Source: Nanobdellota archaeon (GTDB taxonomy: Archaea > Nanobdellota > Nanobdellia > Pacearchaeales > GW2011-AR1). Taken from it: a stretch of DNA of 64,000 bases. Every line of letters begins with the position of its first letter. Positions within the stretch are counted from its first letter, which is position 1. Shown here piece by piece: positions 4,713-20,162 of this stretch. The DNA is taken from positions 75,437-139,436 of the forward strand of contig JBBSXJ010000003.1 in the NCBI GenBank assembly GCA_038045825.1, written 5' to 3'. The notes under the pieces are model-generated. The model did no database searches, was not told where the DNA came from, and was given only the letters and a program-made list of their open reading frames with translations. A program made the position numbers and the translations under genes.

Positions 4713-5639
4713 ATGAAAATTTCAAGACCAAGATATGGAAGTTTGCAGTTTTGGCCACGTAAAAGGGCTGAACGTTTTTTACCTAGTGTTAACTGGGATG
4801 CAATAAAAGGAGAGGGTTTCTTAGGATTTATATCATATAAGGCTGGAATGGCTACTGCAATTGTTAAGGATTCTACTCCTAAGTCTATGACTCCTGGAAA
4901 GAAGATGGCTGTTCCAGTAACATTCTTGGAAATGCCTCCTATGAGAATTTACTCCGTTAGATTTTACAAGGATGGAAAGGTAATGACTGAAGTTGTTGTT
5001 TCAAATGATAGAGAATTAAAGAGAGTTGTTAAAGTCCCTAAAAATCCTTCTAAAGACCTCGACAATGTAAAAGATTTTGATGATATAAGAGTTATAGTAT
5101 ACTCCGTTCCTAAAGAAATTGGCCTTAAGAAAACCCCTGATATGACTGAAATTGGCGTTGGTGGAAAAGATAAGCTTAATTTTGTTAAAAATTATGTTGG
5201 AAAAGACATCAATGTTAATGATTTGAATGGGGATTTATTCGATGTTAGAGGATTGACTAAAGGTAAGGGATTATCTGGTCCAGTTCATAGATTTGGAATC
5301 AGTTTGAAACAGCACAAATCTGAAAAGGGAGTTAGAAAACCTGGTAGTTTAGGTCCATGGCATCCTGCTAGAGTTATATTCAGAGTTCCATTATCAGGAC
5401 AGCTAGGTATGTTCTCTAGACTTCATTATAACTTGAAAGTTCTGGCTTCTTCAGCAACAGCTGGAGATAAAGTAAAATTGAAACCATTTAAGAACTATGG
5501 AAATATAAAAACCAATTATGTTGTTCTTCACGGAAGTGTTCAAGGTCCTGCTAAAAGACAGATTTTATTGACTAGTCCATTAAGACCTTCATTAAAACAA
5601 ACTAGAAAGAAATTTGAAATGATTGAGGTACATATATGA
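4713..5639 (+). CDS. rpl3: 50S ribosomal protein uL3
   Basis: MKISRPRYGSLQFWPRKRA... and KGKGLSGPVHRFG motif; first gene of the conserved archaeal cluster. Confidence 0.95.
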   Translation: MKISRPRYGSLQFWPRKRAERFLPSVNWDAIKGEGFLGFISYKAGMATAIVKDSTPKSMTPGKKMAVPVTFLEMPPMRIYSVRFYKDGKVMTEVVVSNDRELKRVVKVPKNPSKDLDNVKDFDDIRVIVYSVPKEIGLKKTPDMTEIGVGGKDKLNFVKNYVGKDINVNDLNGDLFDVRGLTKGKGLSGPVHRFGISLKQHKSEKGVRKPGSLGPWHPARVIFRVPLSGQLGMFSRLHYNLKVLASSATAGDKVKLKPFKNYGNIKTNYVVLHGSVQGPAKRQILLTSPLRPSLKQTRKKFEMIEVHI

Positions 5640-5698
5640 AAGGACAAAAAATTGGTATTTTTAACATTTCATTTTCCATGGAGGAAAGAGTAAAATGA
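5636..5698 (+). repeat. inter-cistronic repeat element, copy 1 of 4 (uL3|uL4 junction)
   Basis: ATGAAAGGACAAAAAATTGGTATTTTTAACATTTCATTTTCCATGGAGGAAAGAGTAAAATGA; 58/63 identical to copy 2. Its ATG overlaps the uL3 TGA and its TGA overlaps the uL4 ATG. Confidence 0.9.
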
Positions 5699-6459
5699 AA
5701 GCAACAAACTACGACTTGAAAGGACAGAAGACTTCTGAAATTAATTTACCTGGAATATTTGCTACAAAAATAAGAGAAGATATTGCATTGAAATATTATG
5801 AAGCTGATAAGGAATTCCACCCTTATGCTCCCTCACCATTAGCTGGAAGAAAGCACTCTGCTTCTGGAACAATAAGTCACAGAAGACACGAATGGAAAGG
5901 ACATTATGGTAAAGGTATTTCTCGTGCTCCAAGAAAAGCAATGTGGAGAAGAGGAACTCAATTTTATTGGGTTGGCGCTGAAGTAAACTATGCAAGAGGC
6001 GGAAGAGCTGTTCATGCTCCAAAGATATTTTATAGACCTAGAAAGATAAATGATAATGAAATCAAGATAGCCATGCATTCTGCAATTGCTTCAACTGCTA
6101 AGAAAGAAATTGTTACAAAAAGATATACAAGATTGAATGATTTTGCAGGACAAGTTCCTTTTGTAATATCAAATGCTGAAAATATCAAAACAAAACAGTT
6201 AATTGAGATTTTGAAAAAAATGCTTGGAGACAAATATGAAGTTGCTCTGCAAGTAAAAAATGTAAGAAGTGGAAAAGGAAAGATGAGAAACAGAAAATAC
6301 AAGTCAACAGCTGGATTGTTATTTGTAAAAGCTAAGAATGAAAAAATAAATATTAAGGGAGTTGACGTCGTAAATGCTAACGAATTATCAATTGCTGATT
6401 TGTTCCCTTTGGGAAGACTTACTTTATATACTGAAAAATCCCTTGCGGAGTTGAAATAA
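5695..6459 (+). CDS. rpl4: 50S ribosomal protein uL4
   Basis: 254 aa, archaeal L4 N-terminus (MKATNYDLKGQKTSEINLP...) and operon position. Confidence 0.95.
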   Translation: MKATNYDLKGQKTSEINLPGIFATKIREDIALKYYEADKEFHPYAPSPLAGRKHSASGTISHRRHEWKGHYGKGISRAPRKAMWRRGTQFYWVGAEVNYARGGRAVHAPKIFYRPRKINDNEIKIAMHSAIASTAKKEIVTKRYTRLNDFAGQVPFVISNAENIKTKQLIEILKKMLGDKYEVALQVKNVRSGKGKMRNRKYKSTAGLLFVKAKNEKINIKGVDVVNANELSIADLFPLGRLTLYTEKSLAELK

Positions 6460-6460
6460 A

Positions 6461-6700
6461 ATGTTAAAACCTATTACATCTGAAAAAGCAGTAAAATTGA
6501 TTGATTTAGAGAATACTTTGTTGTTTGAAACAGACAGAAGAGAAACAAAAGATGTTATTGCAAAAGAAGTTGCTAACATGTTCAATGTTAAAGTTGAGAA
6601 AGTAAGAACATTAGTACGCGGAAATAAGAAATATGCGTATGTTAAACTAGCTAAACAAAATCCGGCAATTGATGTCGCGACTAAGTTGGGAATGATATGA
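6461..6700 (+). CDS. rpl23: 50S ribosomal protein uL23
   Basis: 79 aa, KKYAYVKL motif, operon position. Confidence 0.9.
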   Translation: MLKPITSEKAVKLIDLENTLLFETDRRETKDVIAKEVANMFNVKVEKVRTLVRGNKKYAYVKLAKQNPAIDVATKLGMI

Positions 6701-7056
6701 TGGTAACACAACAAACACCTCAATTAGAAGAAGGAAGAAAATATACTTTAATAGTTGGAAACAAAGGCGAAACACTAGAAGTTTTATATCTTGGAAAAGT
6801 TGTGAGACAACCGGTTTATTTTCCGCACGAATTTATTGGTAGGGCTCCTATTGGTGGCTCTGATAGTATTATTTCTTTTAGAATCAGAGAAGGAGGATTT
6901 AAAGTTAAAGCGGATTTGGTGGCACCTATTCCTGAAAAAGATGGAAGGGCATTTTTCACAAATATTTATAGTTCATCTTTTAGTCATGAAGTTGGACAAG
7001 TAGGTGTCGAAGAAAGAAGTAGATTGTTAGCTAAATTAAGGGGGGCTGGTTTGTAA
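6697..7056 (+). CDS. hypothetical protein embedded between uL23 and uL2
   Basis: 119-aa ORF. ATGA overlap with the uL23 stop and 1-nt spacer to the uL2 ATG; no family recognised. Confidence 0.6.
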   Translation: MMVTQQTPQLEEGRKYTLIVGNKGETLEVLYLGKVVRQPVYFPHEFIGRAPIGGSDSIISFRIREGGFKVKADLVAPIPEKDGRAFFTNIYSSSFSHEVGQVGVEERSRLLAKLRGAGL

Positions 7057-7057
7057 A

Positions 7058-7759
7058 ATGGGTAAGAGAATTATTTCACAGGCAAGAGGTAAGGGAAGTT
7101 TATCATACCAAGCAAGAAAACAAGCTTTCATTTATAGAATTGGATATCCAATTGGAAATGGAAAGGCAGAAGTCCTTAAGATATTGCACTCTGCTGCTCA
7201 CTCTGCTCCATTAATAAAATTGAAACTTGGTCACAGTATATTCTTCAATGTTGCATTTGATGGAGTAATGAGGGGGCAAAGTATTGTTATTGGTGGAACT
7301 GAAAATGCAATGGGAAATGTTATTGCTTTGAAAGACATTCCAGTATCAACAAGGATTTACAACATTGAACTTAACCCTGGAGACGGAGGAAAAATGATAA
7401 GAACATCTGGAAGCAGTGCTCAACTTTACAAAAGATATGATGATGGAAAAATAGGAATATTAATGCCTAATAGAAATGAATTGAAACTTGATGGAGAGTG
7501 CAGAGCAACTATAGGGATAATTGCTGGAGACGGAAGAAAACAGAAACCATTCATGAAAGCTGGAGTAGTACACTACAGAGCTAAGGCTAGAAACAAATTA
7601 TGGCCTAGAACTTCTGCTCTTAAGACTAACGCTGTAGATCATCCATTCGGTTCAGGAAGAGGAAAGAGACCTAAATCAAAGACTGCTAAGAGAAACGCTC
7701 CTCCAGGAAGAAGAGTAGGTCACTTAGCTCCTAGAAGAACAGGAAGGAAGAAACGATAA
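7058..7759 (+). CDS. rpl2: 50S ribosomal protein uL2
   Basis: C-terminal HPFGSGRG...APPGRRVGHLAPRRTGRKK signature. Confidence 0.95.
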   Translation: MGKRIISQARGKGSLSYQARKQAFIYRIGYPIGNGKAEVLKILHSAAHSAPLIKLKLGHSIFFNVAFDGVMRGQSIVIGGTENAMGNVIALKDIPVSTRIYNIELNPGDGGKMIRTSGSSAQLYKRYDDGKIGILMPNRNELKLDGECRATIGIIAGDGRKQKPFMKAGVVHYRAKARNKLWPRTSALKTNAVDHPFGSGRGKRPKSKTAKRNAPPGRRVGHLAPRRTGRKKR

Positions 7760-8163
7760 TGGCAAAAGAAATAGTAGCACTTAAGAGAGAAAAGAAATTC
7801 TGCGGTCTTACCATAGAGCAACTTAAAGCACTTTCACTAAAAGAAGCATCAGAATACATGCCTGCAAGAAGCAGACGTTCAGTGACTAGACATCCTGAAA
7901 TAATTGACAGATTTATCAAATCAGCTGAAGAGAAAATGTCAAGAAAGAAGAAAGTAAGAACACATTTAAGAGACTTGATTATAGTTCCTAAAATGGTTGG
8001 AATGAATGTTCAAATTTATAATGGAAAATCATTCGAAGAGCTTGCAGTTGATATTGAAATGATAGGTCATAGACTTGGAGAATTTGCATTAACAAGACAG
8101 AAAGTAAATCACTCTGCTGCTGGTATAGGAGCAACAAGAGGAAGTAAGGCAGCTAAGAAGTAA
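7759..8163 (+). CDS. rps19: 30S ribosomal protein uS19
   Basis: YNGKSFEEL...GHRLGEFALTR signature. Confidence 0.95.
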   Translation: MAKEIVALKREKKFCGLTIEQLKALSLKEASEYMPARSRRSVTRHPEIIDRFIKSAEEKMSRKKKVRTHLRDLIIVPKMVGMNVQIYNGKSFEELAVDIEMIGHRLGEFALTRQKVNHSAAGIGATRGSKAAKK

Positions 8164-8164
8164 A

Positions 8165-8761
8165 ATGGCAGAAACAAAAACAACAATGAATGAAGAAAAG
8201 CACACTCATACTGCTAAGACTGAAGAGAATAAACACAATCATGCCACTCATGAACATAAAGAAGGAGATAAACAAGATGAAAAAGCTCATGATCACAAAC
8301 ATGATTCAAAGACAGAACATAAACATGAAGAAAAGAAAGAAAAAATTGAAGTTAAAAAAGTAAAGAAAGATCATGCTATTGCTAGAAATGAAGGAGTTCA
8401 CATTTCAAAGAGACATGGAATATACATATGTTCATTCATTAAAGGAAAGACAATTGACAGAGCAATCAAAGAACTTGAGGAAGTAATAATTCTCAAGAGA
8501 GCTATTCCTTTCAAAGGAGAAATACCTCATAGAAAAGGAGACATGATGTCTGGTCGTTATCCCGTTGCTGCGTCTAAAATATTTATATCTATGCTTAAGA
8601 ACTTAAAGGGTGCTGTTTTGTACAACGGTATGGACATTACAAAAGCAAGAATATCTTCTGCATATACTAATTTCTCTCCTAGACCTCAAAGAAGAGGCGG
8701 AGCAAAAGGAAAGAGAGCATCTGTAACTATTGAAGCAAGAGAAATAGGGGTAAAGAAATAA
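8165..8761 (+). CDS. rpl22: 50S ribosomal protein uL22 with ~70-aa His/Lys/Glu-rich N-terminal extension
   Basis: The C-terminal ~125 aa match uL22 (ISKRHGIYICSFIKGKTIDRAIKELEEV). The N-terminus is low-complexity with repeated H-x-H. Confidence 0.9.
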   Translation: MAETKTTMNEEKHTHTAKTEENKHNHATHEHKEGDKQDEKAHDHKHDSKTEHKHEEKKEKIEVKKVKKDHAIARNEGVHISKRHGIYICSFIKGKTIDRAIKELEEVIILKRAIPFKGEIPHRKGDMMSGRYPVAASKIFISMLKNLKGAVLYNGMDITKARISSAYTNFSPRPQRRGGAKGKRASVTIEAREIGVKK

Positions 8762-9441
8762 TGGAAGAGAAAAAATTTGTAAAATTCAAACAAGATGAAC
8801 TTGGAATTAAAGAATATGTTAAACATTCTTTAGGAAAAGGAAGAATTAGCGATGTTTCAATTGAGTATACTCCAGTTGGAGAGAAGATAATTATTGCAAC
8901 AAACAGACCAGGTCTTGTTATCGGAAAGAGAGGAGAAAAAATAGAAGAACTAACAACTGTTTTAAGAAAGAGATTCCAACTTGACAACCCTCATATTGAT
9001 ATCAAAGAAATTTCTAATGAAGCTCTTGATGCACAACTTGTAGCTGACTCGATAGCTATACAGCTTGAAAGAAAAGGGTCTCTAAAATTCAAAATAATTG
9101 CTTACAAGGCTCTTGATAGTATAATGAAAGCTGGAGCTCTTGGTGTTGAATTAGCATTGTCTGGAAAACTCCCGAGTGAAAGAGCTAAGACATGGAGATT
9201 CCAACAAGGTTATTTGAAGAAAACAGGAGATCCTTCTAAAGTAGTTGAAAAGGCTATGGCTCAAGCAAGAACTCAAATGGGAGTTATAGGAATAAAAGTA
9301 AGTATACTTCCACCTAATGCCCATATACACGATCAGATCAAAGTTAATGATGCTTTAATGCATTTGATTCAGCAGAATAAAATTGCTATGAATGAAAAGC
9401 CAGTTAAGAAAGCAAAGAAGAAGAAGGGAGCTAGTGAATAA
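8761..9441 (+). CDS. rps3: 30S ribosomal protein uS3
   Basis: KH-domain motif VIGKRGEKIEELT; operon position. Confidence 0.95.
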   Translation: MEEKKFVKFKQDELGIKEYVKHSLGKGRISDVSIEYTPVGEKIIIATNRPGLVIGKRGEKIEELTTVLRKRFQLDNPHIDIKEISNEALDAQLVADSIAIQLERKGSLKFKIIAYKALDSIMKAGALGVELALSGKLPSERAKTWRFQQGYLKKTGDPSKVVEKAMAQARTQMGVIGIKVSILPPNAHIHDQIKVNDALMHLIQQNKIAMNEKPVKKAKKKKGASE

Positions 9442-9641
9442 TGGCAATTTTGAAAGCAAAAGAAGCTAGCAAGATGGATCAAAAAGCTAGAAATGAAAAG
9501 ATGAAGGAATTGAAGTTGGAATTAATGAAATCGCAAGCAGGAGCTCAGAAATCTTCAGGTAAAACCAAAGAGATAAAAAGGGCTATTGCACGCTTACTCA
9601 CATTCAACTCAGCCAACAAGGTTAAGGAGAAAAACAAGTAA
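9441..9641 (+). CDS. rpl29: 50S ribosomal protein uL29
   Basis: 66 aa, helical, ELKLELMKSQAG; operon position. Confidence 0.85.
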   Translation: MAILKAKEASKMDQKARNEKMKELKLELMKSQAGAQKSSGKTKEIKRAIARLLTFNSANKVKEKNK

Positions 9642-9941
9642 ATGGAAATAGACCCAAGAACAGGATTACCAATAGCTGGAATATCTTGGGAAGATTTGGC
9701 CAAAGGCCAACAGAAGATAAAGATAGCGACTGAAAAACGTCGTTATGGCAAGGTTATCACCCTTGTCTCAGGCTTTGACAAAGGCATTGATTTAAAAGCC
9801 ACTGCAAAGGCATTAAAGGAAGGACTCGCCTGTGGAGGGACAATAAAGGATCAGGTCATTGAACTTCAAGGAGATCACAAAAGACAAGCCAGAGTAATCT
9901 TAGTAAAAATAGGATTTTCTGATGAGTCAATTGAGGACTAA
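9642..9941 (+). CDS. sui1: translation initiation factor aIF1 / SUI1
   Basis: RRYGKVITLVSGF...ALKEGLACGGT... matches the SUI1 fold; commonly located here in archaea. Confidence 0.85.
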   Translation: MEIDPRTGLPIAGISWEDLAKGQQKIKIATEKRRYGKVITLVSGFDKGIDLKATAKALKEGLACGGTIKDQVIELQGDHKRQARVILVKIGFSDESIED

Positions 9942-9942
9942 T

Positions 9943-10263
9943 ATGGCAAAAACACAAAAAACAGAAATAAAAATTGAAAAGAAAACACCAGAAGTAGTTG
10001 GAACTAGAGGAAGAACATTTGAAGGAACAGTTGTAAAGAAATTTGACAAAAGAGCAGTTGTTGAATTTGATAGAACTGTAAAAGTTGCAAAGTATGAAAG
10101 ATTTATGAGAAAGACTACAAGAGTTCATTCTAGAATTCCTACAGGAATGAATGTTAATATTGGAGATTATGTTAAAGTTCAGGAATGCAGACCTTTGAGT
10201 AAAATGATTCACTCAGTTGTTATTGAAATAATGAGACCAGTATCTCAAGGAGTTGCAAAATGA
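9943..10263 (+). CDS. rps17: 30S ribosomal protein uS17
   Basis: ECRPLSK motif. I moved the start from the track's 9922 to ATG 9943, 1 nt after the SUI1 stop. Confidence 0.9.
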   Translation: MAKTQKTEIKIEKKTPEVVGTRGRTFEGTVVKKFDKRAVVEFDRTVKVAKYERFMRKTTRVHSRIPTGMNVNIGDYVKVQECRPLSKMIHSVVIEIMRPVSQGVAK

Positions 10264-10322
10264 AAGGACAAAAAATCTATATTTTTAACCTTTCATTTTC
10301 CCTGGAGGAAAGAGTAAAATGA
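10260..10322 (+). repeat. inter-cistronic repeat element, copy 2 of 4 (uS17|uL14 junction)
   Basis: ATGAAAGGACAAAAAATCTATATTTTTAACCTTTCATTTTCCCTGGAGGAAAGAGTAAAATGA; ATGA overlaps at both ends; GGAGG at 10304-10308. Confidence 0.9.
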
Positions 10323-10720
10323 AAGCTATACCTGCAAGAGCAACAAGAGGATTGAATATTGGAAGCGTAGTTGTAGCTAGTGATAATAGTGGAGCTAGAT
10401 TAGTTAGAATTGTTGGAGTTAAAAAAGGAAAAACAGGAAAAGGAACTCAACAGTATGCTAAAATGGCTGACTATGTTAAGGTTTCAGTTAGAGCTGGAAA
10501 GCCAGATATGAAGGGACAAGTTTTCGACGCTATCATTATCAGACAGAAAAAACCATACAGAAGAAATACTGGAGAAAGAGTAATGTTTGAAGATAATGCG
10601 GTATGTTTACTAAAAGACGAAAAAGGAAACCCTAAAGGTACATTCATTAAAGGACCAATAAGTAAAGAAGTTTTTGAAAGGTGGAAAGCTGTTGCAAAAA
10701 TAGCCCAATTCGTACTATGA
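10319..10720 (+). CDS. rpl14: 50S ribosomal protein uL14
   Basis: VVASDNSGARLVRIVGV motif. Confidence 0.95.
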   Translation: MKAIPARATRGLNIGSVVVASDNSGARLVRIVGVKKGKTGKGTQQYAKMADYVKVSVRAGKPDMKGQVFDAIIIRQKKPYRRNTGERVMFEDNAVCLLKDEKGNPKGTFIKGPISKEVFERWKAVAKIAQFVL

Positions 10721-11022
10721 CAAATGAAAAATTAATTAGTCTTGAAGGAAAAGTTGCAAACTTAGTCTACTGTAATTCAAGAGAACCAGATGCATCCGGT
10801 CTTCCTGAAAACTTTGTTTCACTTAAGATAAGAACTCGCAATGGGAGAGTCAATGTTTTGTTAACTGGTAAATATATCCCGCCTATACAAAATGAGACTT
10901 ATGTTGAAGTGATATTAGAAAAAGTTAGACTTAAACACAGGGAAACTGATGATTATGTAGTAAGATTTATGTGGGGAAAAGAATCTGAAAGTGGAAAAGA
11001 ATTCTGGGAGTATCAAGGTTAA
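10717..11022 (+). CDS. hypothetical protein embedded between uL14 and uL24
   Basis: 101 aa from ATG 10717 (the track starts at GTG 10681 inside uL14). ATGA overlap with the uL14 stop and 1-nt spacer to the uL24 ATG; no family recognised. Confidence 0.6.
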   Translation: MTNEKLISLEGKVANLVYCNSREPDASGLPENFVSLKIRTRNGRVNVLLTGKYIPPIQNETYVEVILEKVRLKHRETDDYVVRFMWGKESESGKEFWEYQG

Positions 11023-11023
11023 T

Positions 11024-11449
11024 ATGAGAACACAATTTTCTACATCATGGAAATCTAGTGAACAACCTAGAAAGCAAAGAAAATACAGATATGAAGCTCC
11101 TCTTCACATAAAGCATAAGTTTTTAAGCGCTCCATTATCAAAAGAATTACGCAAGAAGCACGGAATACGCTCATTGCCCGTTAGAACTGGCGACGAGGTT
11201 AACATTATGCGTGGAACATTTGCCGGCAAAAAAGCCAAAGTAATGAATGTTGAAGTCAATAAGTCAAGAGTAACTCTTGAAAACATTACAAGAAAAAAAG
11301 CAGATGGAACAAAGCTAAATGTGTATTTCAATCCAAGTAAATTGCAAATAATTGCGTTGAAGCTGGATGATTCGCGCAGATTGCCTTCAGGCAACACTGG
11401 CGGAACAAAGAAATCCGAGGAAAAAAACAATGCACCAAACACGAAGTGA
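11024..11449 (+). CDS. rpl24: 50S ribosomal protein uL24
   Basis: KOW motif VRTGDEVNIMRGTFAGKKAKV. Start moved to ATG 11024 (the track's 10991 overlaps the previous ORF). Confidence 0.9.
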   Translation: MRTQFSTSWKSSEQPRKQRKYRYEAPLHIKHKFLSAPLSKELRKKHGIRSLPVRTGDEVNIMRGTFAGKKAKVMNVEVNKSRVTLENITRKKADGTKLNVYFNPSKLQIIALKLDDSRRLPSGNTGGTKKSEEKNNAPNTK

Positions 11450-12047
11450 AGTCATTAAACAATTACCATTAGCAAGAAAAGGATCAAAATATGTAGCTCG
11501 CGCTATTAGGAATAGTTCTAATTCTGTACCTCTTATAGTTGCAGTAAGAGATATGCTTAAGCTTGCAAAAACAAGCAAGGAAGTTAAAGGAATGGTTCAT
11601 AACAAGAAACTTAAGATAAATGGTAAAGTTGCAAAGAACTTAACTGACCCTATATGCTTATTCTCAAGAATTGAAGCTGATAAAAATTATTTATTGACTA
11701 TGTTGCCTACAGGAAGATTCTCATTTGTTGAAACAAAAGACAATGAAAGAAAACTTAAGATTATGGGAAAAACAATGGTTAAGGGAAAGAAGCTTCAATA
11801 TTCTCTTCACGATGGAACAAGCATTGTATCTGACAAAGAATTCTCAGTTGGAGATACATTGATATTAAACAATGAAAATAAAGTCTCAAAACATATTGCA
11901 CTGGATAATGGAAAAGAAGTTTTTGCATTCTCTGGAAGTTATATTGGAAAACAAGGAAAAGTTCAGAATGTTTCGGGAAACAAAATAACTGTAAAGTTTG
12001 ACAAGGAGGAAGCTGTGATTGAAAAGTCACAAGTAATTGTAATATGA
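11430..12047 (+). CDS. rps4e: 30S ribosomal protein eS4
   Basis: MHQTRSEVIKQLPLARKGSKYV... typical S4e N-terminus; start moved to ATG 11430. Confidence 0.9.
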   Translation: MHQTRSEVIKQLPLARKGSKYVARAIRNSSNSVPLIVAVRDMLKLAKTSKEVKGMVHNKKLKINGKVAKNLTDPICLFSRIEADKNYLLTMLPTGRFSFVETKDNERKLKIMGKTMVKGKKLQYSLHDGTSIVSDKEFSVGDTLILNNENKVSKHIALDNGKEVFAFSGSYIGKQGKVQNVSGNKITVKFDKEEAVIEKSQVIVI

Positions 12048-12106
12048 AAGGACGAAAAATCTATATTTTTAACCTTTCATTTTCCCTGGAGGAAAGAGTA
12101 AAATGA
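12044..12106 (+). repeat. inter-cistronic repeat element, copy 3 of 4 (eS4|uL5 junction)
   Basis: 62/63 identical to copy 2 (single A to G change at element position 11); ATGA overlaps at both ends. Confidence 0.9.
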
Positions 12107-12624
12107 AAGCACAATTGGTTAATGTAATGAGAATTCCTAAAATAACAAGGGTTGTTCTTAGTGCTGGAGCTGTCGATAAAGATTTAGAAAAAGCAAAGAA
12201 ATTACTTGAAATGATTTCAGAGAAAAAAGCTCAAGTTACAAAATCTGGACCTAGAATGAGAATTCCTGCTTTTGGAGTTAAACCTAAAATGGAATTAGGC
12301 ACTAGTGTTACATTGAGGAAGAAAGAAGCTATTGAGGTATTAAAGAGACTACTAGGTGCTATTGATAACAAACTTAAGGTTTCTTCAATAGATAAAAATA
12401 ATTTTTCATTTGGCATACCTGAATACATTAACATACCTGGAGTAAAGTATCTTAGAGAAATAGGTATCAGAGGATTTAATGTAACTGTTGTATTTGAAAG
12501 ACCTGGATTAAGAGTAAAGAAAAGAAAAATTAAAACTGGTAAGGTTCCTAGCAGACAGCATGTGACTCAAGAAGAAATAATAGAATACATGAAAGATACT
12601 TTCAAAACGGAGATAATAGAATGA
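12103..12624 (+). CDS. rpl5: 50S ribosomal protein uL5
   Basis: MRIPKITRVVLSAGA... and operon position. Confidence 0.9.
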   Translation: MKAQLVNVMRIPKITRVVLSAGAVDKDLEKAKKLLEMISEKKAQVTKSGPRMRIPAFGVKPKMELGTSVTLRKKEAIEVLKRLLGAIDNKLKVSSIDKNNFSFGIPEYINIPGVKYLREIGIRGFNVTVVFERPGLRVKKRKIKTGKVPSRQHVTQEEIIEYMKDTFKTEIIE

Positions 12625-12851
12625 CCGCAAGCGATTGGAATAAAGTATTGAAACAGATCAGGAACAAACCAGCTATGGCTAAGAAATTCCTTAAATTTAA
12701 TAAGCCAAAGGATAGAAAAACAGGGGTAGCTGCGCAGAAATGTAAACGCTGCGGAAGATTTGGAGCTCACTTAAATCAATATGCTCTGCATTTATGCAGA
12801 CATTGCTTCAGAGAAATAGCTGAAGAAATAGGTTTCAAAAAATACTCATGA
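12621..12851 (+). CDS. rps14: 30S ribosomal protein uS14 (zinc type)
   Basis: CKRCGR...CRHCF zinc knuckles. The ATG at 12621 forms an ATGA overlap with uL5; an alternative internal start is 12675 (MAKKFLKF...). Confidence 0.85.
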   Translation: MTASDWNKVLKQIRNKPAMAKKFLKFNKPKDRKTGVAAQKCKRCGRFGAHLNQYALHLCRHCFREIAEEIGFKKYS

Positions 12852-13222
12852 GTCAAGACATTGTTTCAGACGGTTTAAATAGAATAATGAACGCAAAGTT
12901 AGCTGGGCAAACTAACATTACTTTGAAGCACCATTCAAAGTTCTTGCAAAATGTATTAGCAATAGGAAAATTAAAGAAATATATATCAGAATATTCAGTA
13001 ACTCCAAAGGGATTATATGTTGAGTTCAATACTCTTAACAGATGTAGAGCTGTAAAACCTAGATATATTGTAAAAGTAAAGGATATTGATAAGTATGTAA
13101 GAAGATACTTGCCTGCTAGAGGAATTGGAATCCTTGTTATATCAACAAGTAGGGGATTAGTTACTCACCAAACAGCTTTGGATAAAGGAATAGGAGGAAG
13201 CATTGTTGCTTATTTCTACTAA
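12848..13222 (+). CDS. rps8: 30S ribosomal protein uS8
   Basis: DGLNRIMNAKLAG N-terminus; operon position. Confidence 0.9.
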   Translation: MSQDIVSDGLNRIMNAKLAGQTNITLKHHSKFLQNVLAIGKLKKYISEYSVTPKGLYVEFNTLNRCRAVKPRYIVKVKDIDKYVRRYLPARGIGILVISTSRGLVTHQTALDKGIGGSIVAYFY

Positions 13223-13764
13223 TGAAAAACAACTATGAAACAACTGTTGAGATACCTGAAGGAATTAACTGCACTAGTTCAGGAACTACATTAAATTGTT
13301 CTAAAGGAAACACTCAATTAGTAAAGAAATTTGAGATTCACACAATTATTATATCTGTAAAGGGAAAGGAAATAGTTTTGACATGCAAGAAAGCAAATAA
13401 AAGAGGAGTTGCAAATGTTAATGCAATTGCTGCTCACATAAGAAACTTATTCCTTGGATTAAATGAGAGATTTGTATATGAAATGGAAATATGTAATGTA
13501 CACTTTCCTATGACTGTTAAAACGGATAAAGAAAATTTTATAATCACAAACTTTTTGGGAGAAAAGGTTCCTAGAAATGCAAAGATATTGTCTGGAGTTG
13601 AAGTAAAAGTTGCTGGAACTAAAGTTACTATTTCAAGCGCTGACATTGAGAAGGCTGGGCAAACAGCAGCTAATATTGAAAAAGCATCTAAAGTGACTAA
13701 GAAAGATAGAAGAATTTTCCAGGATGGAATATTTATCACTAAAAAACCAGGAGCTGAAAAATGA
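13222..13764 (+). CDS. rpl6: 50S ribosomal protein uL6
   Basis: 180 aa, two-domain beta-rich protein in the canonical position. Confidence 0.9.
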   Translation: MKNNYETTVEIPEGINCTSSGTTLNCSKGNTQLVKKFEIHTIIISVKGKEIVLTCKKANKRGVANVNAIAAHIRNLFLGLNERFVYEMEICNVHFPMTVKTDKENFIITNFLGEKVPRNAKILSGVEVKVAGTKVTISSADIEKAGQTAANIEKASKVTKKDRRIFQDGIFITKKPGAEK

Positions 13765-14117
13765 GTTTCTTAAGAAGAAGTACATTGAAACATTCAAGAA
13801 TGGGTCTTGGAAGACGTAAATTGCATAGATGGAGAAGGGCAGTTGGAAGACATAGCAAACTAAGAAAAAACAGATTTGGTTATACTAAGTCTCCTAGAAT
13901 AGGATTCAAATCCCCTAGATCTGAAAGTGGAAAAATAAATGGAAAAATACCTATCAGAGTAACAAACATGCAAGAAATGAATAAAGCAAACAAGGACAAC
14001 ATAATAATCATAGCTAGAACAATAGGTGTTAGAAAGAGAATTGAAATGATAAAAAAAGCAGATGAAATGAAAGTTGAAGTATTGAATATTAAGTCAAATT
14101 TTGGAGGAATTAAATAA
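13761..14117 (+). CDS. rpl32e: 50S ribosomal protein eL32
   Basis: HRWRRAVGRHSKLRKNRFGYTKSPRIGFKSP signature. Confidence 0.85.
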   Translation: MSFLRRSTLKHSRMGLGRRKLHRWRRAVGRHSKLRKNRFGYTKSPRIGFKSPRSESGKINGKIPIRVTNMQEMNKANKDNIIIIARTIGVRKRIEMIKKADEMKVEVLNIKSNFGGIK

Positions 14118-14530
14118 TGGATTTATATAAGAAAAAAGCTCTTGCGTCTAGAACTTTGAATGTTGGAATGGGAAGAATAAGATTTAACTCTAACAATATA
14201 AATGAAATCAAAGAAGCTATTACAAAGCAGGATATTCGTGACCTTGTAGCTGCTAAGGCAATATTTGTTAATCCAGTTAAGGGAAGAAAAGTAAATTCCC
14301 CTAGAAAGAGAAGAAGGGCTGGAAGCATAAGAATGAGACCTAACAGCAGAAAGAGAGATTATATAATATTAACGAGAAAGTTGAGAAGCTATTTAAGTGA
14401 AATAAGAAAACAAGGCAAAATTACAGATGAAGAATTTGCAACTCTTAGAAATGGAGTTAGAAGCAAGACTTTCAAGAATAAGAATAATCTAAAGGAGCAT
14501 ATACAAGTTATGCAGAAGGAGACTAAATAA
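14117..14530 (+). CDS. rpl19e: 50S ribosomal protein eL19
   Basis: LASRTLNVGMGRIRF N-terminus, basic C-terminus. Confidence 0.9.
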   Translation: MDLYKKKALASRTLNVGMGRIRFNSNNINEIKEAITKQDIRDLVAAKAIFVNPVKGRKVNSPRKRRRAGSIRMRPNSRKRDYIILTRKLRSYLSEIRKQGKITDEEFATLRNGVRSKTFKNKNNLKEHIQVMQKETK

Positions 14531-14531
14531 A

Positions 14532-14591
14532 ATGCAAGGACAAAAAATTGATATTTTTAACCTTTCATTTTATTCTGGAGGAGTAAAATAA
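14532..14591 (+). repeat. inter-cistronic repeat element, copy 4 of 4 (eL19|uL18 junction), diverged
   Basis: ATGCAAGGACAAAAAATTGATATTTTTAACCTTTCATTTTATTCTGGAGGAGTAAAATAA; 60 nt, same core, small indels near the 3' end. Confidence 0.85.
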
Positions 14592-14592
14592 A

Positions 14593-15075
14593 ATGCAAGG
14601 CGTACAAAAAACAGTAAGAAGAAGAAGACATGAAGGAAAAACTGATTACAAAGCTAGATTTTATCTTCTAAAATCTGGACAGGCTAGAGTTGTATTTAGA
14701 AAGACAAACAGATTTTTACAAGCTCAAATAGTTACTTCTGATATTGCTCAAGACAAAGTAATTATAACTGTAAGCACAAAAGACTTGCTTCAACACGGAT
14801 GGCCTGAAAAGCTTTCTGGAAGTTTAAAGAGTTTACCTGCAGCATATTTGATGGGATGCTTGCTTGCTAAGAAAACAAAGATTAAGAGTGGAGTTCTTGA
14901 TATAGGATTGCTTTCACACGTTCCAAAATCAAGAATATATGCATTCGTTAAAGGGATGAAAGACTCCGGATTTGAAATGCCTGTTAAAGAAGATGTTTTA
15001 CCTACTGATGAAATGATTAATCACAAAGAAGAAACAGCAAAGCTTATTAAACAACTTAAGGAGAAGCTGAAATGA
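14593..15075 (+). CDS. rpl18: 50S ribosomal protein uL18
   Basis: RRRRHEGKTDYKAR signature. Confidence 0.9.
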   Translation: MQGVQKTVRRRRHEGKTDYKARFYLLKSGQARVVFRKTNRFLQAQIVTSDIAQDKVIITVSTKDLLQHGWPEKLSGSLKSLPAAYLMGCLLAKKTKIKSGVLDIGLLSHVPKSRIYAFVKGMKDSGFEMPVKEDVLPTDEMINHKEETAKLIKQLKEKLK

Positions 15076-15809
15076 AAACTGAAGTAAAACAAGAAGAAAT
15101 TGGAATTGCACTAGAAGTTCCTAAGACTGAAGAGGAATTATTGGCTCAAGAAGTAAAAAAGGAAGAACAGACTCCTGTTTCTGCTTGGAATCCTAAAACT
15201 CAAATTGGTAAAGAAGTAAAGGCAGGAAGAATAAAAAATATTGATTCTATTCTTTTAAGTGGTAAGAAAATACTTGAGCCTGAAATTGTTGACAGTCTTA
15301 TTAGTTTAGAAAAAGATTTACTTTTAGTTGGACAATCAAAAGGTAAATTCGGAGGAGGAAAGAGAAGGGCTTGGAGACAGACTCAAAAGAAAACAATGGA
15401 AGGAAACGTACTTACATTCTCATCTATGGCTGTTGTTGGAGACAGAAATGGCCATGTTGGACTTGGACTTGGAAAATCAAAGGAAACATTACCTTCAAGA
15501 GAGAAAGCGGTTAGGCTTGCTAAACTTAATGTCATAAAAGTTACAAGAGGATGTGGAAACTTTGACTGTTCATGTTCTGAACCCCACAGCATACCATTCA
15601 TAGTTGAAGGAAAATGTGGAAGCGTTAAAGTTAAGTTGATTCCAGCACCTCAAGGAACTGGTCTTGTAATAGGCGATGAATGTAAGAAGATATTGAGATT
15701 AGCTGGAATAAGAGATGTTTATTCATATACTAAAGGATATGGAAGATCTACTATTAATTTCGCTAGCGCATGTATTGAAGCTCTAAAAAATACAAAGGTG
15801 TTAAAATGA
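15072..15809 (+). CDS. rps5: 30S ribosomal protein uS5
   Basis: VVGDRNGHVGLGLGKSKE signature. Confidence 0.95.
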   Translation: MKTEVKQEEIGIALEVPKTEEELLAQEVKKEEQTPVSAWNPKTQIGKEVKAGRIKNIDSILLSGKKILEPEIVDSLISLEKDLLLVGQSKGKFGGGKRRAWRQTQKKTMEGNVLTFSSMAVVGDRNGHVGLGLGKSKETLPSREKAVRLAKLNVIKVTRGCGNFDCSCSEPHSIPFIVEGKCGSVKVKLIPAPQGTGLVIGDECKKILRLAGIRDVYSYTKGYGRSTINFASACIEALKNTKVLK

Positions 15810-16222
15810 TAATTGTAATAAGAATATCTGGAATGGTTGACGTACCTGAAGATATAGATGCCGCATTGCATAGTATCAAACTTAGAAGAAAGTATTCTGC
15901 AATACTCATGCATGAAAGTCCTGAAAACTCCAAGTTGCTTAATAAAATAAGAAGTTTTGTTGCATTTGGAGAAGTATCAAATGAGAATCTTGTTAAACTA
16001 GTGTCTTTGAGAGGAGAATCAACAAAGAAAGGAAAAATAGATGCAGAATCAATTGTTAAAAATTTAGATAAAAAGTCATTAATTGAACAGGGAATGAAAC
16101 CATTCTTTAGATTGCACCCTCCTAGAAAAGGAATTGAAAGCAAGAAACACTTTGGAATTGGAAAAGGAGTTTTAGGAGATAATAAAGATCATATAAACGC
16201 GCTTCTGGAGAGAATGTTATGA
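15806..16222 (+). CDS. rpl30: 50S ribosomal protein uL30
   Basis: IIVIRISGMVDVPEDIDAALHSIKLRRKY; operon position. Confidence 0.85.
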   Translation: MIIVIRISGMVDVPEDIDAALHSIKLRRKYSAILMHESPENSKLLNKIRSFVAFGEVSNENLVKLVSLRGESTKKGKIDAESIVKNLDKKSLIEQGMKPFFRLHPPRKGIESKKHFGIGKGVLGDNKDHINALLERML

Positions 16223-16407
16223 GTAAAGTAAAATCAGCATGGGAATGTCAATGTGGGGCAATTGCTTATGGTAAATTACCTCCTGCTGAATGTAAAAGAT
16301 GCGGGGAAGAAGGCTCATATGCAGAAGCTGATGAAGATGATTTAGATGAATTAGCTGGAGAAAACTTAATGGAAGAAATAAGATCTAAAGATTGGGGGGA
16401 AGAATAA
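16219..16407 (+). CDS. zinc-ribbon protein with acidic C-terminal tail, embedded between uL30 and uL15
   Basis: 62 aa; C-x-C...C-x2-C (WECQCG...ECKRCG) followed by a D/E-rich tail. ATGA overlap with uL30 and TAATG overlap with uL15. Confidence 0.6.
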   Translation: MSKVKSAWECQCGAIAYGKLPPAECKRCGEEGSYAEADEDDLDELAGENLMEEIRSKDWGEE

Positions 16408-16802
16408 TGAAATACAAGAAAAGAAAAAAATCAGGAAGATTCAGAGGATCGCATACTCACGGTAGAGGTGGAAAAAAGAAAGCTAGAGGTAGTGGTCATA
16501 GAGGAGGATTTGGTATGGCTGGAACTGGTAAGAGAGGAGACCAAAAGAAAACTCAAATCTTAAAGCTAGGAATGGAAACTTACTTTGGCAAGAGAAAGAC
16601 AAATATGAGATTTGGTAAGCAGAAATTACAGACTCTTAACCTTGAAAGAATTTCAGATGTTAAAGATGGAGCAGACTTTTCAGATTACAAAGTTGTAGGC
16701 ACATTAAATAGAAACATCAAATTGAATATTACTGCAGGAGCTGCTAGTCCTGGAGCAATTAAGTCGGTTGAAAAACACGGCGGAAAAATCACAATAAAGT
16801 GA
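16407..16802 (+). CDS. rpl15: 50S ribosomal protein uL15
   Basis: GRFRGSHTHGRGGKKKARGSGHRGGFGMAGTGKR signature; start moved to ATG 16407. Confidence 0.9.
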   Translation: MKYKKRKKSGRFRGSHTHGRGGKKKARGSGHRGGFGMAGTGKRGDQKKTQILKLGMETYFGKRKTNMRFGKQKLQTLNLERISDVKDGADFSDYKVVGTLNRNIKLNITAGAASPGAIKSVEKHGGKITIK

Positions 16803-19637: not shown

Positions 19638-20162
19638 ATGAAAGGTATGGGAATAATATTTTTGGTGATGATTGCTTCTTTAGCTGCAGCTACTCTTTGG
19701 GATAAAGTTCCAATAATAGGGGAAAGTGTTCATATTGCATTTGATCCTTCTCTTGGAAAAATGCTTGATTGGAATGTTACTATTGGTTTGATAATAATAA
19801 CTGCTGTTTTGAATTTGATCACTACTTTGATCCATAAGAAAGTAACTGATCAGGATATGTTGAAGACAATAAAGGAAGAACAAAAACTAGTGAATGAGGA
19901 AATGAAACTTTACAAAGATAATCCTGGTAAGACAATGGAATTGTCTAAGAAATCTATGGAGCTTGCATTCAAGACTTTTCCTATAACAATGAGACCTGTT
20001 GTTTATACTGCTATTCCATTCATATTACTTATTAGGTGGTTTGGAGATTATTTTAAAACAAATCCTGTTAAGATATTAGGATTTATGTCTGGATTCTGGG
20101 CATATATTGTATTCTTCGTTGTATTCTCTATAATCTGGAGAAAAATACTGAAAGTTCATTAA
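19638..20162 (+). CDS. DUF106 / EMC3-TMCO1-like membrane protein (archaeal YidC/Oxa1-like insertase)
   Basis: 174 aa; TM, then a coiled charged hairpin (KEEQKLVNEEMKLYKDNPGK...), then 2 TM; position downstream of secY is typical. Confidence 0.6.
   Translation: MKGMGIIFLVMIASLAAATLWDKVPIIGESVHIAFDPSLGKMLDWNVTIGLIIITAVLNLITTLIHKKVTDQDMLKTIKEEQKLVNEEMKLYKDNPGKTMELSKKSMELAFKTFPITMRPVVYTAIPFILLIRWFGDYFKTNPVKILGFMSGFWAYIVFFVVFSIIWRKILKVH

Follow-up and report, generated by a model that had tools for sequence, protein, structure and literature searches.

Four short, mutually related inserts were found at cistron junctions of the archaeal S10/spc ribosomal-protein (r-protein) operon in a 64,000-nt stretch of a contig from a Nanobdellota archaeon of the Pacearchaeales (JBBSXJ010000003.1, positions 75,437 to 139,436; assembly GCA_038045825.1), which is referred to here as the window. 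The four copies are true insertions that were acquired once the lineage of the window had separated from its closest sampled sister. Every copy forms an open mini-ORF (open reading frame) with an internal Shine-Dalgarno motif, chained to both of its neighbours by ATGA or TAA-A-ATG junctions, an arrangement that was overlooked in the first-pass annotation. In the reading preferred here, which is held with moderate confidence, the insert would be a junction cassette that is copied between stop/start junctions by microhomology-templated synthesis and kept only where a termination-reinitiation relay was rebuilt. The window has a GC content of about 32% and its closest records are contigs from Hainich groundwater and the metagenome-assembled genome GCA_964368055.1. 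The operon extends from uL3 to uL15 (4713-16802) and is followed by SecY; nearly all of its junctions are 4-nt (ATGA) or 1-nt overlaps, or 1-nt gaps.

All four copies lie on the plus strand and could be aligned over about 60 nt. A 20-nt core occurred four times in the 64 kb, compared with 0.09 occurrences expected by chance, and a profile search of the window with nhmmer revealed no further copies. Copies 1 to 3 form subfamily A with an insert of 59 nt, and copy 4 represents subfamily B with 56 nt plus a 5-nt duplication. Copy 1 (5636-5698) is located between uL3 and uL4 and consists of a 59-nt insert (5636-5694) with the mini-ORF MKGQKIGIFNISFSMEERVK, whose ATG overlaps the uL3 stop codon (ATGA) and whose TGA overlaps the uL4 ATG at 5695; a GGAGG motif is found at 5680-5684. 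Copy 2 (10260-10322; 59-nt insert 10260-10318; mini-ORF MKGQKIYIFNLSFSLEERVK) separates uS17 from uL14, the ATG of which is at 10319, and copy 3 (12044-12106; 59-nt insert 12044-12102; mini-ORF MKGRKIYIFNLSFSLEERVK) separates eS4 from uL5 with its ATG at 12103; both show an ATGA overlap at each end. Copy 4 (14532-14592) is a 61-nt insert between eL19 and uL18. Its mini-ORF (MQGQKIDIFNLSFYSGGVK, 14532-14591) terminates in a duplicated eL19 stop codon that a single base separates from the uL18 ATG at 14593, and carries GGAGG at 14577-14581.

The flanking direct repeats described in the first-pass annotation were all exact in position and sequence when rechecked. They comprise ATGAAAG on both sides of copy 1 (5636-5642 and 5695-5701), AAAATGAAAG at 10257-10266 and 10316-10325 for copy 2, AATATGAAAG at 12041-12050 versus AAAATGAAAG at 12100-12109 for copy 3, and AAATAAAATGCAAGG at 14525-14539 and 14586-14600 for copy 4, all on the plus strand. 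The left repeat of copy 2 holds the uS17 stop codon and the start of the mini-ORF; in the right repeat, ATGAAAG is the native start of uL14 and the preceding AAA is the 3′ end of the element. In copy 4 the left repeat contains the native eL19 stop and a copy of the uL18 start, and the right repeat contains the duplicated eL19 stop context and the native uL18 start. The repeat lengths are thus 7, 10 (7 plus 3), 7 and 15 nt in the window, and about 1 nt or none in the longer relatives of the element described below (long type). Among the 15-mers of the window, that of copy 4 was the only one repeated directly at a spacing of 40-80 nt, with 0.06 expected from first-order Markov simulations. Repeated 10-mers at this spacing were common (42 observed, about 10 simulated) and the 7-mer repeats taken singly are uninformative, so that only the repeat of copy 4 is significant alone.

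Contigs of the sister lineage were found by look-up of the uL14 protein of the window. In L001 (GCA_053535335.1) and L005, which encode an identical uL14 protein and share about 91% nucleotide identity over the operon, the uL3/uL4, uS17/uL14, eS4/uL5 and eL19/uL18 junctions are all uninterrupted. The empty junctions of L001 read CACATATGAAAGCG, ACACAATGAAAGCT, GTAATATGAAAGCA and AGTAAATAAAATGCAAGGCG. It had been predicted at first pass that deletion of the core and one repeat would restore the junction style used elsewhere in the operon, and such empty sites were indeed found in L001 and L005 and in further lineages. GTAATATGAAAGCA at eS4/uL5 is an exact match to the predicted pre-insertion junction, AGTAAATAAAATGCAAGGCG is one substitution off, and the empty sites other than eS4/uL5 differ from the prediction by one or two lineage substitutions. 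Seven more Pacearchaeota lineages with 79-89% r-protein identity (L027/28, L029-32, L033, L034, L036/37, L044/45 and L046) are likewise empty at the four sites. The site of copy 1 is empty in L001, L029, L033, L034 and L038, that of copy 2 in L001, L017, L028, L029, L033, L034 and L037, and those of copies 3 and 4 in all other sampled lineages. The empty sites of the relatives are intact ATGA or TAA-A-ATG junctions. Since the sister and the seven further lineages are all empty, the empty state is ancestral, with four gains in the lineage of the window. The opposite pattern raised at first pass, in which all relatives carry the element at the same sites with the same flanks, was therefore not observed; the second doubt raised there, that the flank identity lies in the element itself, is weighed below and considered very unlikely.

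All 13 distinct inserts (56-124 nt, differing by insertions and deletions) are open from the left ATG to a stop codon at -4 to +2 of the real ATG. The mini-ORFs span 10-39 codons. Those of copies 1 to 3 comprise 20 codons (MKGQKI[G/Y]IFN[I/L]SFS[M/L]EERVK) and that of copy 4 comprises 19; a tandem dimer found in a relative forms a single ORF of 38 codons, and the uL3/uL4 insert of lineage L017 is a chain of two overlapping ORFs. When the interiors were shuffled, the frame stayed open in only 3-24% of the trials per insert, and the joint probability of open frames is about 1e-6, obtained by our own multiplication over seven distinct insert types. The peptide sequence itself is not conserved: codon 7 encodes G, Y or D, and orthologous 39-codon copies differ at 12 of 39 residues. 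Every insert carries a Shine-Dalgarno-like motif (GGAGG, GGAG, GGGGG or GAGGGAG) 6-12 nt 5′ of the real ATG, called by motif and not from the 3′ end of the host 16S rRNA. In copy 2 this is GGAGG at 10304-10308 (plus strand), at the 3′ end of the mini-ORF and 10 nt upstream of the uL14 ATG, and folding predictions leave it mostly unpaired. In the short type, the predicted state of the real initiation site is open, more so than in shuffled sequences, whereas in five of the seven long-type inserts the site is predicted to be more paired than in shuffled sequences. Concealment of the real ribosome-binding site by the insert until translation of the mini-ORF was thus rejected for the short type and holds for these five long-type inserts, and coupling by unfolding is plausible for the long type only. 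The ORFs of 19-39 codons are mostly not called as genes and the junctions resemble unexplained intergenic gaps, which is of relevance to annotation.

Among the 25 genes from uL3 to SecY, exactly four start with ATG[A/C]AAG, namely uL4, uL14 and uL5 (ATGAAAGC) and uL18 (ATGCAAGG), and exactly these four are occupied. The chance of this is 1 in 12,650 by combinatorics, for a motif that was defined after the fact. It is this association with gene starts, and not the lengths of the repeats, that makes the pattern non-random. Throughout the window, seven of 72 putative genes start with ATG[A/C]AAG and three of these are empty. One of the three, the EMC3/TMCO1-like gene after SecY (19638-19646, plus strand; native start ATGAAAGGT), is occupied in its ortholog in L017. 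The right arm of the hairpin of the element, CCTTTCAT, complements ATGAAAGG, which is the native start of this EMC3-like gene at 19638. Only uL18 among the 72 gene starts has the octamer ATGCAAGG; the 5′ module of the short element, ATG[C/A]AAGG-ACAAAAAA, corresponds to the uL18 start ATGCAAGG-CGT-ACAAAAAA with one codon removed (14593-14612 versus 14532-14548), so that the two gene starts would point to different birthplaces of the element. The uL5 protein of the window, L001, L017 and the L028 clade shows a 4-codon N-terminal extension (MKAQLVNVMRI versus MNNVMRI elsewhere; 12103-12130), and because this extension is absent in other lineages, the target start ATGAAAGCA of uL5 is itself derived.

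The right-hand ATGAAAG or ATGCAAGG is the native gene start, as it is present in the empty sites. The left end of copy 4 carries the uL18-specific C (ATGCAAGG), and its right end has an extra ATAAA that duplicates the eL19 stop context. In L017 the left end of a short-type copy reads ATGAAAGGAA, like its target gene, and the match extends one base past the family consensus. These comparisons support a target-derived left repeat at copy 4, with the L017 copy as a second case. In copy 2, however, the AAA of the right repeat is element-borne and that of the left repeat goes back to a lineage-specific C-to-A change, so that the true duplication is 7 nt and not 10. The start of long-type inserts, (A)TATGAAAAT, is their own and does not depend on the target. 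The claim of the first-pass annotation that the left repeat follows the downstream gene thus stands for copy 4 and the L017 copy, and falls short for three of the 10 nt of copy 2 and for the long type. A simple tandem duplication in situ was ruled out for copy 4, the middle 28 nt of which match neither flank. As read from the sequence, a 56-nt unit with a short duplication only would let the mini-ORF run about 8 codons into uL18. The uL18 gene starts with ATGC and cannot form ATGA, and the long duplication of copy 4 is exactly what supplies the stop codon of the mini-ORF; through the duplicated eL19 stop, the native TAA-A-ATG arrangement is regained.

The left repeat ATGAAAGG pairs with an internal CCTTTCAT and is one arm of a 14-bp palindrome, which had been missed in the first-pass annotation. 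In copy 2 this imperfect palindrome occupies 10260-10296 (plus strand), with a lower stem at 10260-10267/10289-10296 (ATGAAAGG/CCTTTCAT), an upper stem at 10271-10276/10281-10286 (AAAAAT/ATTTTT) and a variable tetraloop at 10277-10280. The same layout was observed in all four copies, and the palindrome is present in every short-type copy. In this sole inverted repeat, the 5′ end is paired with the centre of the element (columns 1-8 with 30-37), and the 3′ 22 nt are left without a partner. At the right end, a weak 5-bp UUUCC/GGAAA stem occurs in copies 1 and 3 and is reduced to 3 bp in copy 2; it is absent from copy 4 and from the minimum-free-energy fold of the L039 copy. Long-type copies have a 9-bp hairpin, the sequence of which differs between L004 and L043. 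In the hairpin alignment 95% of the cells are paired; no compensatory pair was found, and all eight deviating cells break pairs without compensation. The folding energies of the copies did not differ from those of shuffled sequences (z -0.2 to -1.4). An Rfam scan of the operon yielded no family, the best matches, such as mir-7359, being chance matches far below the gathering scores.

Related inserts of 56-124 nt were found in three unrelated host clades, mostly at other junctions. In L016, which was detected in a metagenome scan and whose flanking genes are about 75% identical, the core is present as a tandem dimer at uS17/uL14, with eS4/uL5 empty. Within the same lineage, that of L038/L039, some contigs carry two units at uS17/uL14 and L039 carries one, and L043 has one copy at this junction and a 106-nt relative at uL5/uS14. 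The L017 lineage, with 92% r-protein identity to the window, contains inserts at six other or partly overlapping junctions. Its long-type relatives (63-123 nt) are located at uL3/uL4, uL22/uS3, uL14/uL24, uS8/uL6 and between a gene for a 62-aa protein and uL15, and a short-type copy (L017:17476-17537) lies before the EMC3/TMCO1-like gene after SecY. The mini-ORF of this short-type copy does not overlap any upstream gene; the 73 nt preceding it (L017:17403-17475) hold a terminator-like hairpin (AAAAGTTC...GAACTTTT) and an A/T-rich tract.

Within species, too, there is variation in presence or absence and in copy number. One such polymorphism lies between the 62-aa gene and uL15 (16403-16412, plus strand), where the window represents the empty allele. 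L004/L049 and L050, which belong to the species of the window, carry a 124-nt long-type mini-cistron with a 39-codon ORF at this site (L004:16090-16213; L050:4328-4451), and a similar insert is found at the same junction in the L017 lineage. An origin of the L004 insert in an L017-like donor, with transfer by homologous recombination, was ruled out, since its flanks keep the window type as far as the insert borders and show full identity over at least 740 nt on either side. Between strains of 99% identity, loop and stem variants (CTAT, TGGT, TGAT; AACC/AACA; CCC/CCA) have been swapped among paralogous sites, indicating gene conversion. In the host tree, element-bearing clades are interspersed with element-free ones, and the element tree is incongruent with it: copy 4 groups with the copies of the most distant host clade, and copies 1 to 3 group with the copy of L017. 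Over their 5′ 40 nt the copies are 95-100% identical between hosts that share about 75% identity in their r-protein genes. Every true match from all scans lay within the r-protein/SecY operon. A metagenome scan with the core pattern returned copies in the r-protein operon only, plus one chance match, and neither of the two cores searched for was present on viral contigs. Six matches to the core pattern in 185,579 species genomes were discarded as chance or unrelated AT-rich sequences (three from Halomonas/Vreelandella and the others from Bacillota, Flavobacterium and Patescibacteria). In the three Halomonas/Vreelandella genomes (L008, L009, L011) the AT-rich pattern had matched the same conserved intergenic sequence of GC-rich Halomonadaceae, which is unrelated to the element.

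Both target-site duplication by a small non-autonomous element and a templated duplication-insertion had been proposed in the first-pass annotation, and it is the second option that fits the data better. The duplications vary in length, the targets resemble the left end of the element, patches are exchanged between paralogs, and the longer relatives have no duplication, all of which argues for templated copying over transposon target-site duplication. The accompanying observations that terminal inverted repeats are absent, that the duplication varies from 7 to 15 nt and that no transposase is encoded were all confirmed, the last by the lack of transposase, integrase and reverse-transcriptase Pfam domains in 40 ORFs scanned in the window. 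An existing copy presents start-codon sequence (ATGAAAG...) on both of its sides. A broken or stalled 3′ end at another ATG[A/C]AAG junction could prime on it by microhomology, copy the core, and then return to its own junction via a second microhomology, whereby 7-15 nt of the target would be copied again. The outcome would be a variable 'target-site duplication' without a transposase, and the route may be template switching or synthesis-dependent end joining. We know of no demonstration of this pathway in DPANN archaea. Copy 4 could be reproduced base for base by a departure at AAGG and a return at AAAT, which tests compatibility and does not prove the pathway. Paralogous copies within 9 kb are candidate donor templates, and the strain comparisons reveal continued patchy conversion among the copies, so that exchange driven by homology is at work in these genomes.

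Retention of the insert as a relay cistron is suggested by its anatomy together with published coupling experiments. In Haloferax volcanii an intergenic distance of 13-14 nt approximately halves termination-reinitiation and one of 22-23 nt abolishes it, and in E. coli a distance of 38 nt reduces it by 80-90% or abolishes it (PMC10666635). From this distance dependence, an untranslated insert of at least 55 nt should uncouple the downstream gene. The mini-ORF would restore the chain, its ATG taking the position of the displaced start codon, its frame staying open, its 3′ end supplying a GGAGG-type Shine-Dalgarno motif and its stop codon overlapping the real start or lying no more than 2 nt from it. 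A ribosome finishing the upstream gene could thus reinitiate on the mini-ORF, melt the hairpin while translating it, terminate on the real ATG and reinitiate there. Translation of the downstream gene is therefore likely to depend on translation of the mini-ORF; de novo initiation at the new Shine-Dalgarno motif would also be possible.

Several observations weigh against this combination of templated copying and relay. The ribosome-binding site of the short type is predicted to be open, and de novo initiation alone might suffice, which would make the open frame less important. Long-type inserts show no target duplication. The incongruence of the trees and the identity of the 5′ 40 nt point to horizontal movement or to strong constraint at the nucleotide level, neither of which is explained by local copying. 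No donor of the clean 124-nt gain in L004/L050 is contained in the window, which implies that some source of the element lies elsewhere. The copying route is deduced from footprints, and a dedicated enzyme may be encoded outside the 64 kb. Where new copies come from and why the 5′ half is so alike across lineages are points at which a dedicated mobilising activity or horizontal transfer may come in. In a tentative alternative, possible at best, the insert could be a hitherto unrecognised kind of mobile element, a self-propagating translational-coupling cassette that homes to stop/start junctions by its start-codon sequence and moves horizontally among Pacearchaeota via dedicated machinery. This machinery might use a reverse-transcriptase or target-primed route, with which the variable duplications, the A-rich 3′ end and the missing inverted repeats would agree, or it might be a junction-specific nuclease, and the relay ORF and Shine-Dalgarno motif that the element brings along would make it invisible to selection even in an r-protein operon.

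Mobilisation in trans, by an enzyme from elsewhere in the genome, of a non-autonomous transposable element, either similar to miniature inverted-repeat transposable elements (MITEs) or a hairpin-dependent IS200/IS605-type 'PATE', is unlikely. Such an element would prefer ATGAAAG, and the relay anatomy would reflect a survival filter. The multi-copy state and the presence/absence polymorphism between and within species agree with it, as do the independent hits at the uS17/uL14 and 62-aa gene/uL15 junctions in distant clades, the decoupling of element and host phylogenies, the left-end hairpin with a single orientation of all copies, and the clean 124-nt gain with its donor not in the window. 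It is contradicted by the missing terminal inverted repeats and by duplications that measure 7-15 nt in short-type copies but about 0-1 nt in long-type ones; insertion of IS200/IS605 elements creates no duplication, and copy 4 has one of 15 nt. Moreover, no transposase-like Pfam domain was found in the window, all true matches are confined to the r-protein/SecY operon, and the viral contigs carried neither core. It is quite unlikely that the insert is instead a selected cis-regulatory module, in which the 40-nt palindromic 5′ half would bind a protein, be a site of RNA processing or act as an internal archaeal promoter (an A-rich stretch plus TATATTTTTAA) and retune r-protein genes. This half is 95-100% identical across hosts with about 25% divergence in the flanking genes, its palindrome is found in every short-type copy, the long type has a hairpin of its own, and bacterial repeats that supply a promoter, a ribosome-binding site as well as an ATG are known, namely REP2 of Neisseria and IR of Borrelia (PMC3184786). 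However, Rfam gave no match, the folding energies resemble those of shuffled sequences, covariation is zero with eight uncompensated deviations, and what the short and long types share are translational features (ATG, open frame, Shine-Dalgarno motif and stop placement) and not the sequence of the hairpin. Seven related lineages also live without any copy.

That there is no real target duplication, and that the element merely brings its own ATGAAAGG start and GTAAA end next to genes starting with ATGAAAG, with the 15-nt match of copy 4 arising by later conversion or slippage, is very unlikely. The most frequent start context here is ATGAAA, copies demonstrably convert one another, and the AAA triplets of copy 2 have the separate origins described above; long-type inserts start with ATGAAAAT whatever the target (uS3 starts with ATGGAAGAG and uL15 with ATGAGATAC). 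Copy 4, however, would need two coincident changes, A to C at its left start and the addition of ATAAA at its right end. In the L017 copy the match to the target continues one base past the family consensus, and the perfect association of inserts with ATG[A/C]AAG is left unexplained unless targeting depends on homology. Least probable by far is a family of functional micropeptides. The frame is open in all copies, a few of the changes are conservative (L/I, L/M, S/T) and two are synonymous, but most differences are non-synonymous and non-conservative (G/Y/D at codon 7, S/P, E/G, Q/K/R), the lengths range from 10 to 39 codons, the orthologous 39-codon copies are as divergent as noted above, and the concatenated mini-ORF products had no match among 5.8 billion proteins.

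A literature search yielded no description of such inserts in archaeal r-protein operons. The closest likeness in design is a synthetic one, the bicistronic design BCD2 with its leader cistron of 17 aa, Shine-Dalgarno motif in the leader 3′ end and overlapping stop and start codons, in which the translating ribosome delivers and unfolds the initiation site (PMC5995908). The window copies, with 19-20 aa, share the short leader cistron, the location of the Shine-Dalgarno motif of the real gene and the overlap of the leader stop with the real start. BCD, however, is engineered and placed behind a promoter, whereas the inserts are natural, multi-copy and polymorphic and lie between cistrons, with a second overlap that couples them to the upstream gene; their relay function is predicted. 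Likened by architecture, Neisseria REP2 and Borrelia IR also have no terminal inverted repeats, form internal stem-loops near the 5′ end and bring a ribosome-binding site together with an ATG directly upstream of genes (PMC3184786). The ATG of REP2, however, is the start of the gene itself; the insert is a complete separate mini-ORF that ends on the native ATG, located at cistron junctions of an archaeal r-protein operon and with a target-derived duplication. Rickettsia palindromic elements are likewise small palindromic repeats that are tolerated in translated regions by keeping a frame open (PMC3184786), but they are fused into host proteins, while the insert is a separate cistron in another frame with stop/start overlaps.

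With MITEs the inserts have in common that they are short, code for no transposase, are multi-copy and polymorphic in insertion, form hairpins and are flanked by direct repeats (PMC3184786). They differ in having neither terminal inverted repeats nor a duplication of fixed length, so that they fall outside the definition of a MITE, and in that all copies lie in one operon, in one orientation and at start codons; no related IS element was found in the window. They also fail one test for IS200/IS605 derivatives, since PATE insertion makes no target duplication and copy 4 has one of 15 nt. No Y1 TnpA was found in the 64-kb window or in the 20-kb loci of the relatives. These sequences are more probably templated copies than transposon insertions. 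As outlined in two reports (PMC2943611, PMC7954356), insertions made by synthesis-dependent microhomology-mediated end joining or template switching resemble them in the nearby template, the junctions with 3-8 nt microhomology and the variable target-derived flanking repeats; those insertions are one-off repair scars, whereas the present cassette recurs at many junctions in several lineages and is retained.

The junctions of r-protein operons are among the most conserved arrangements of prokaryotes, and here they gain and lose inserts of 56-124 nt between species, and even strains, of genome-reduced DPANN archaea. If the relay is true, a compact operon coupled by overlaps would tolerate only inserts that rebuild the termination-reinitiation chain, the inserts would be a natural precedent for synthetic bicistronic couplers, and the distance rule of reinitiation could be tested with naturally evolved sequences. 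If a dedicated mobilising activity exists, it would represent a new mobile element that targets start codons.

Other features of the operon also differ among lineages. A 119-aa ORF between uL23 and uL2 (6697-7056), with an ATGA overlap at its 5′ end and a TAA-A-ATG junction at its 3′ end, contains no Pfam domain and has homologues confined to its own cluster. It is missing at this junction in L001, L017, L029, L033 and L034, and the L038 clade has a different ORF of 111 aa there, which gave no BLASTP alignment with the 119-aa ORF and a global alignment z of 3.6. This similarity is weak, and no evidence was obtained that the 119-aa ORF is linked to the element as a partner protein. The uL14/uL24 spacer (10720-11000) varies among lineages: the window, L001 and L034 have an additional ORF there, about 100 aa long and with no Pfam match; L027-L033 and L036-L039 have no such ORF, and L017 has a 73-nt long-type insert at this place. 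Downstream, the stretch 23032-63459 is mostly a large cluster for glycosylation and surface polysaccharides, encoding STT3/AglB, many GT2/GT4 glycosyltransferases, flippases, sugar epimerases and dehydratases, and two carbamoyltransferases. Pfam scans of five ORFs in this stretch (152-395 aa) gave no match, one of the five showing only a sub-threshold match to NUDIX. Lineage-specific cargo adjacent to the operon was also observed in relatives: L001 carries a MazE/PemK toxin-antitoxin pair (L001:17404-17939), and in L043 the region after uL15 (L043:6541-10306) contains ParE-like toxins and an MmeI-like restriction-modification gene.

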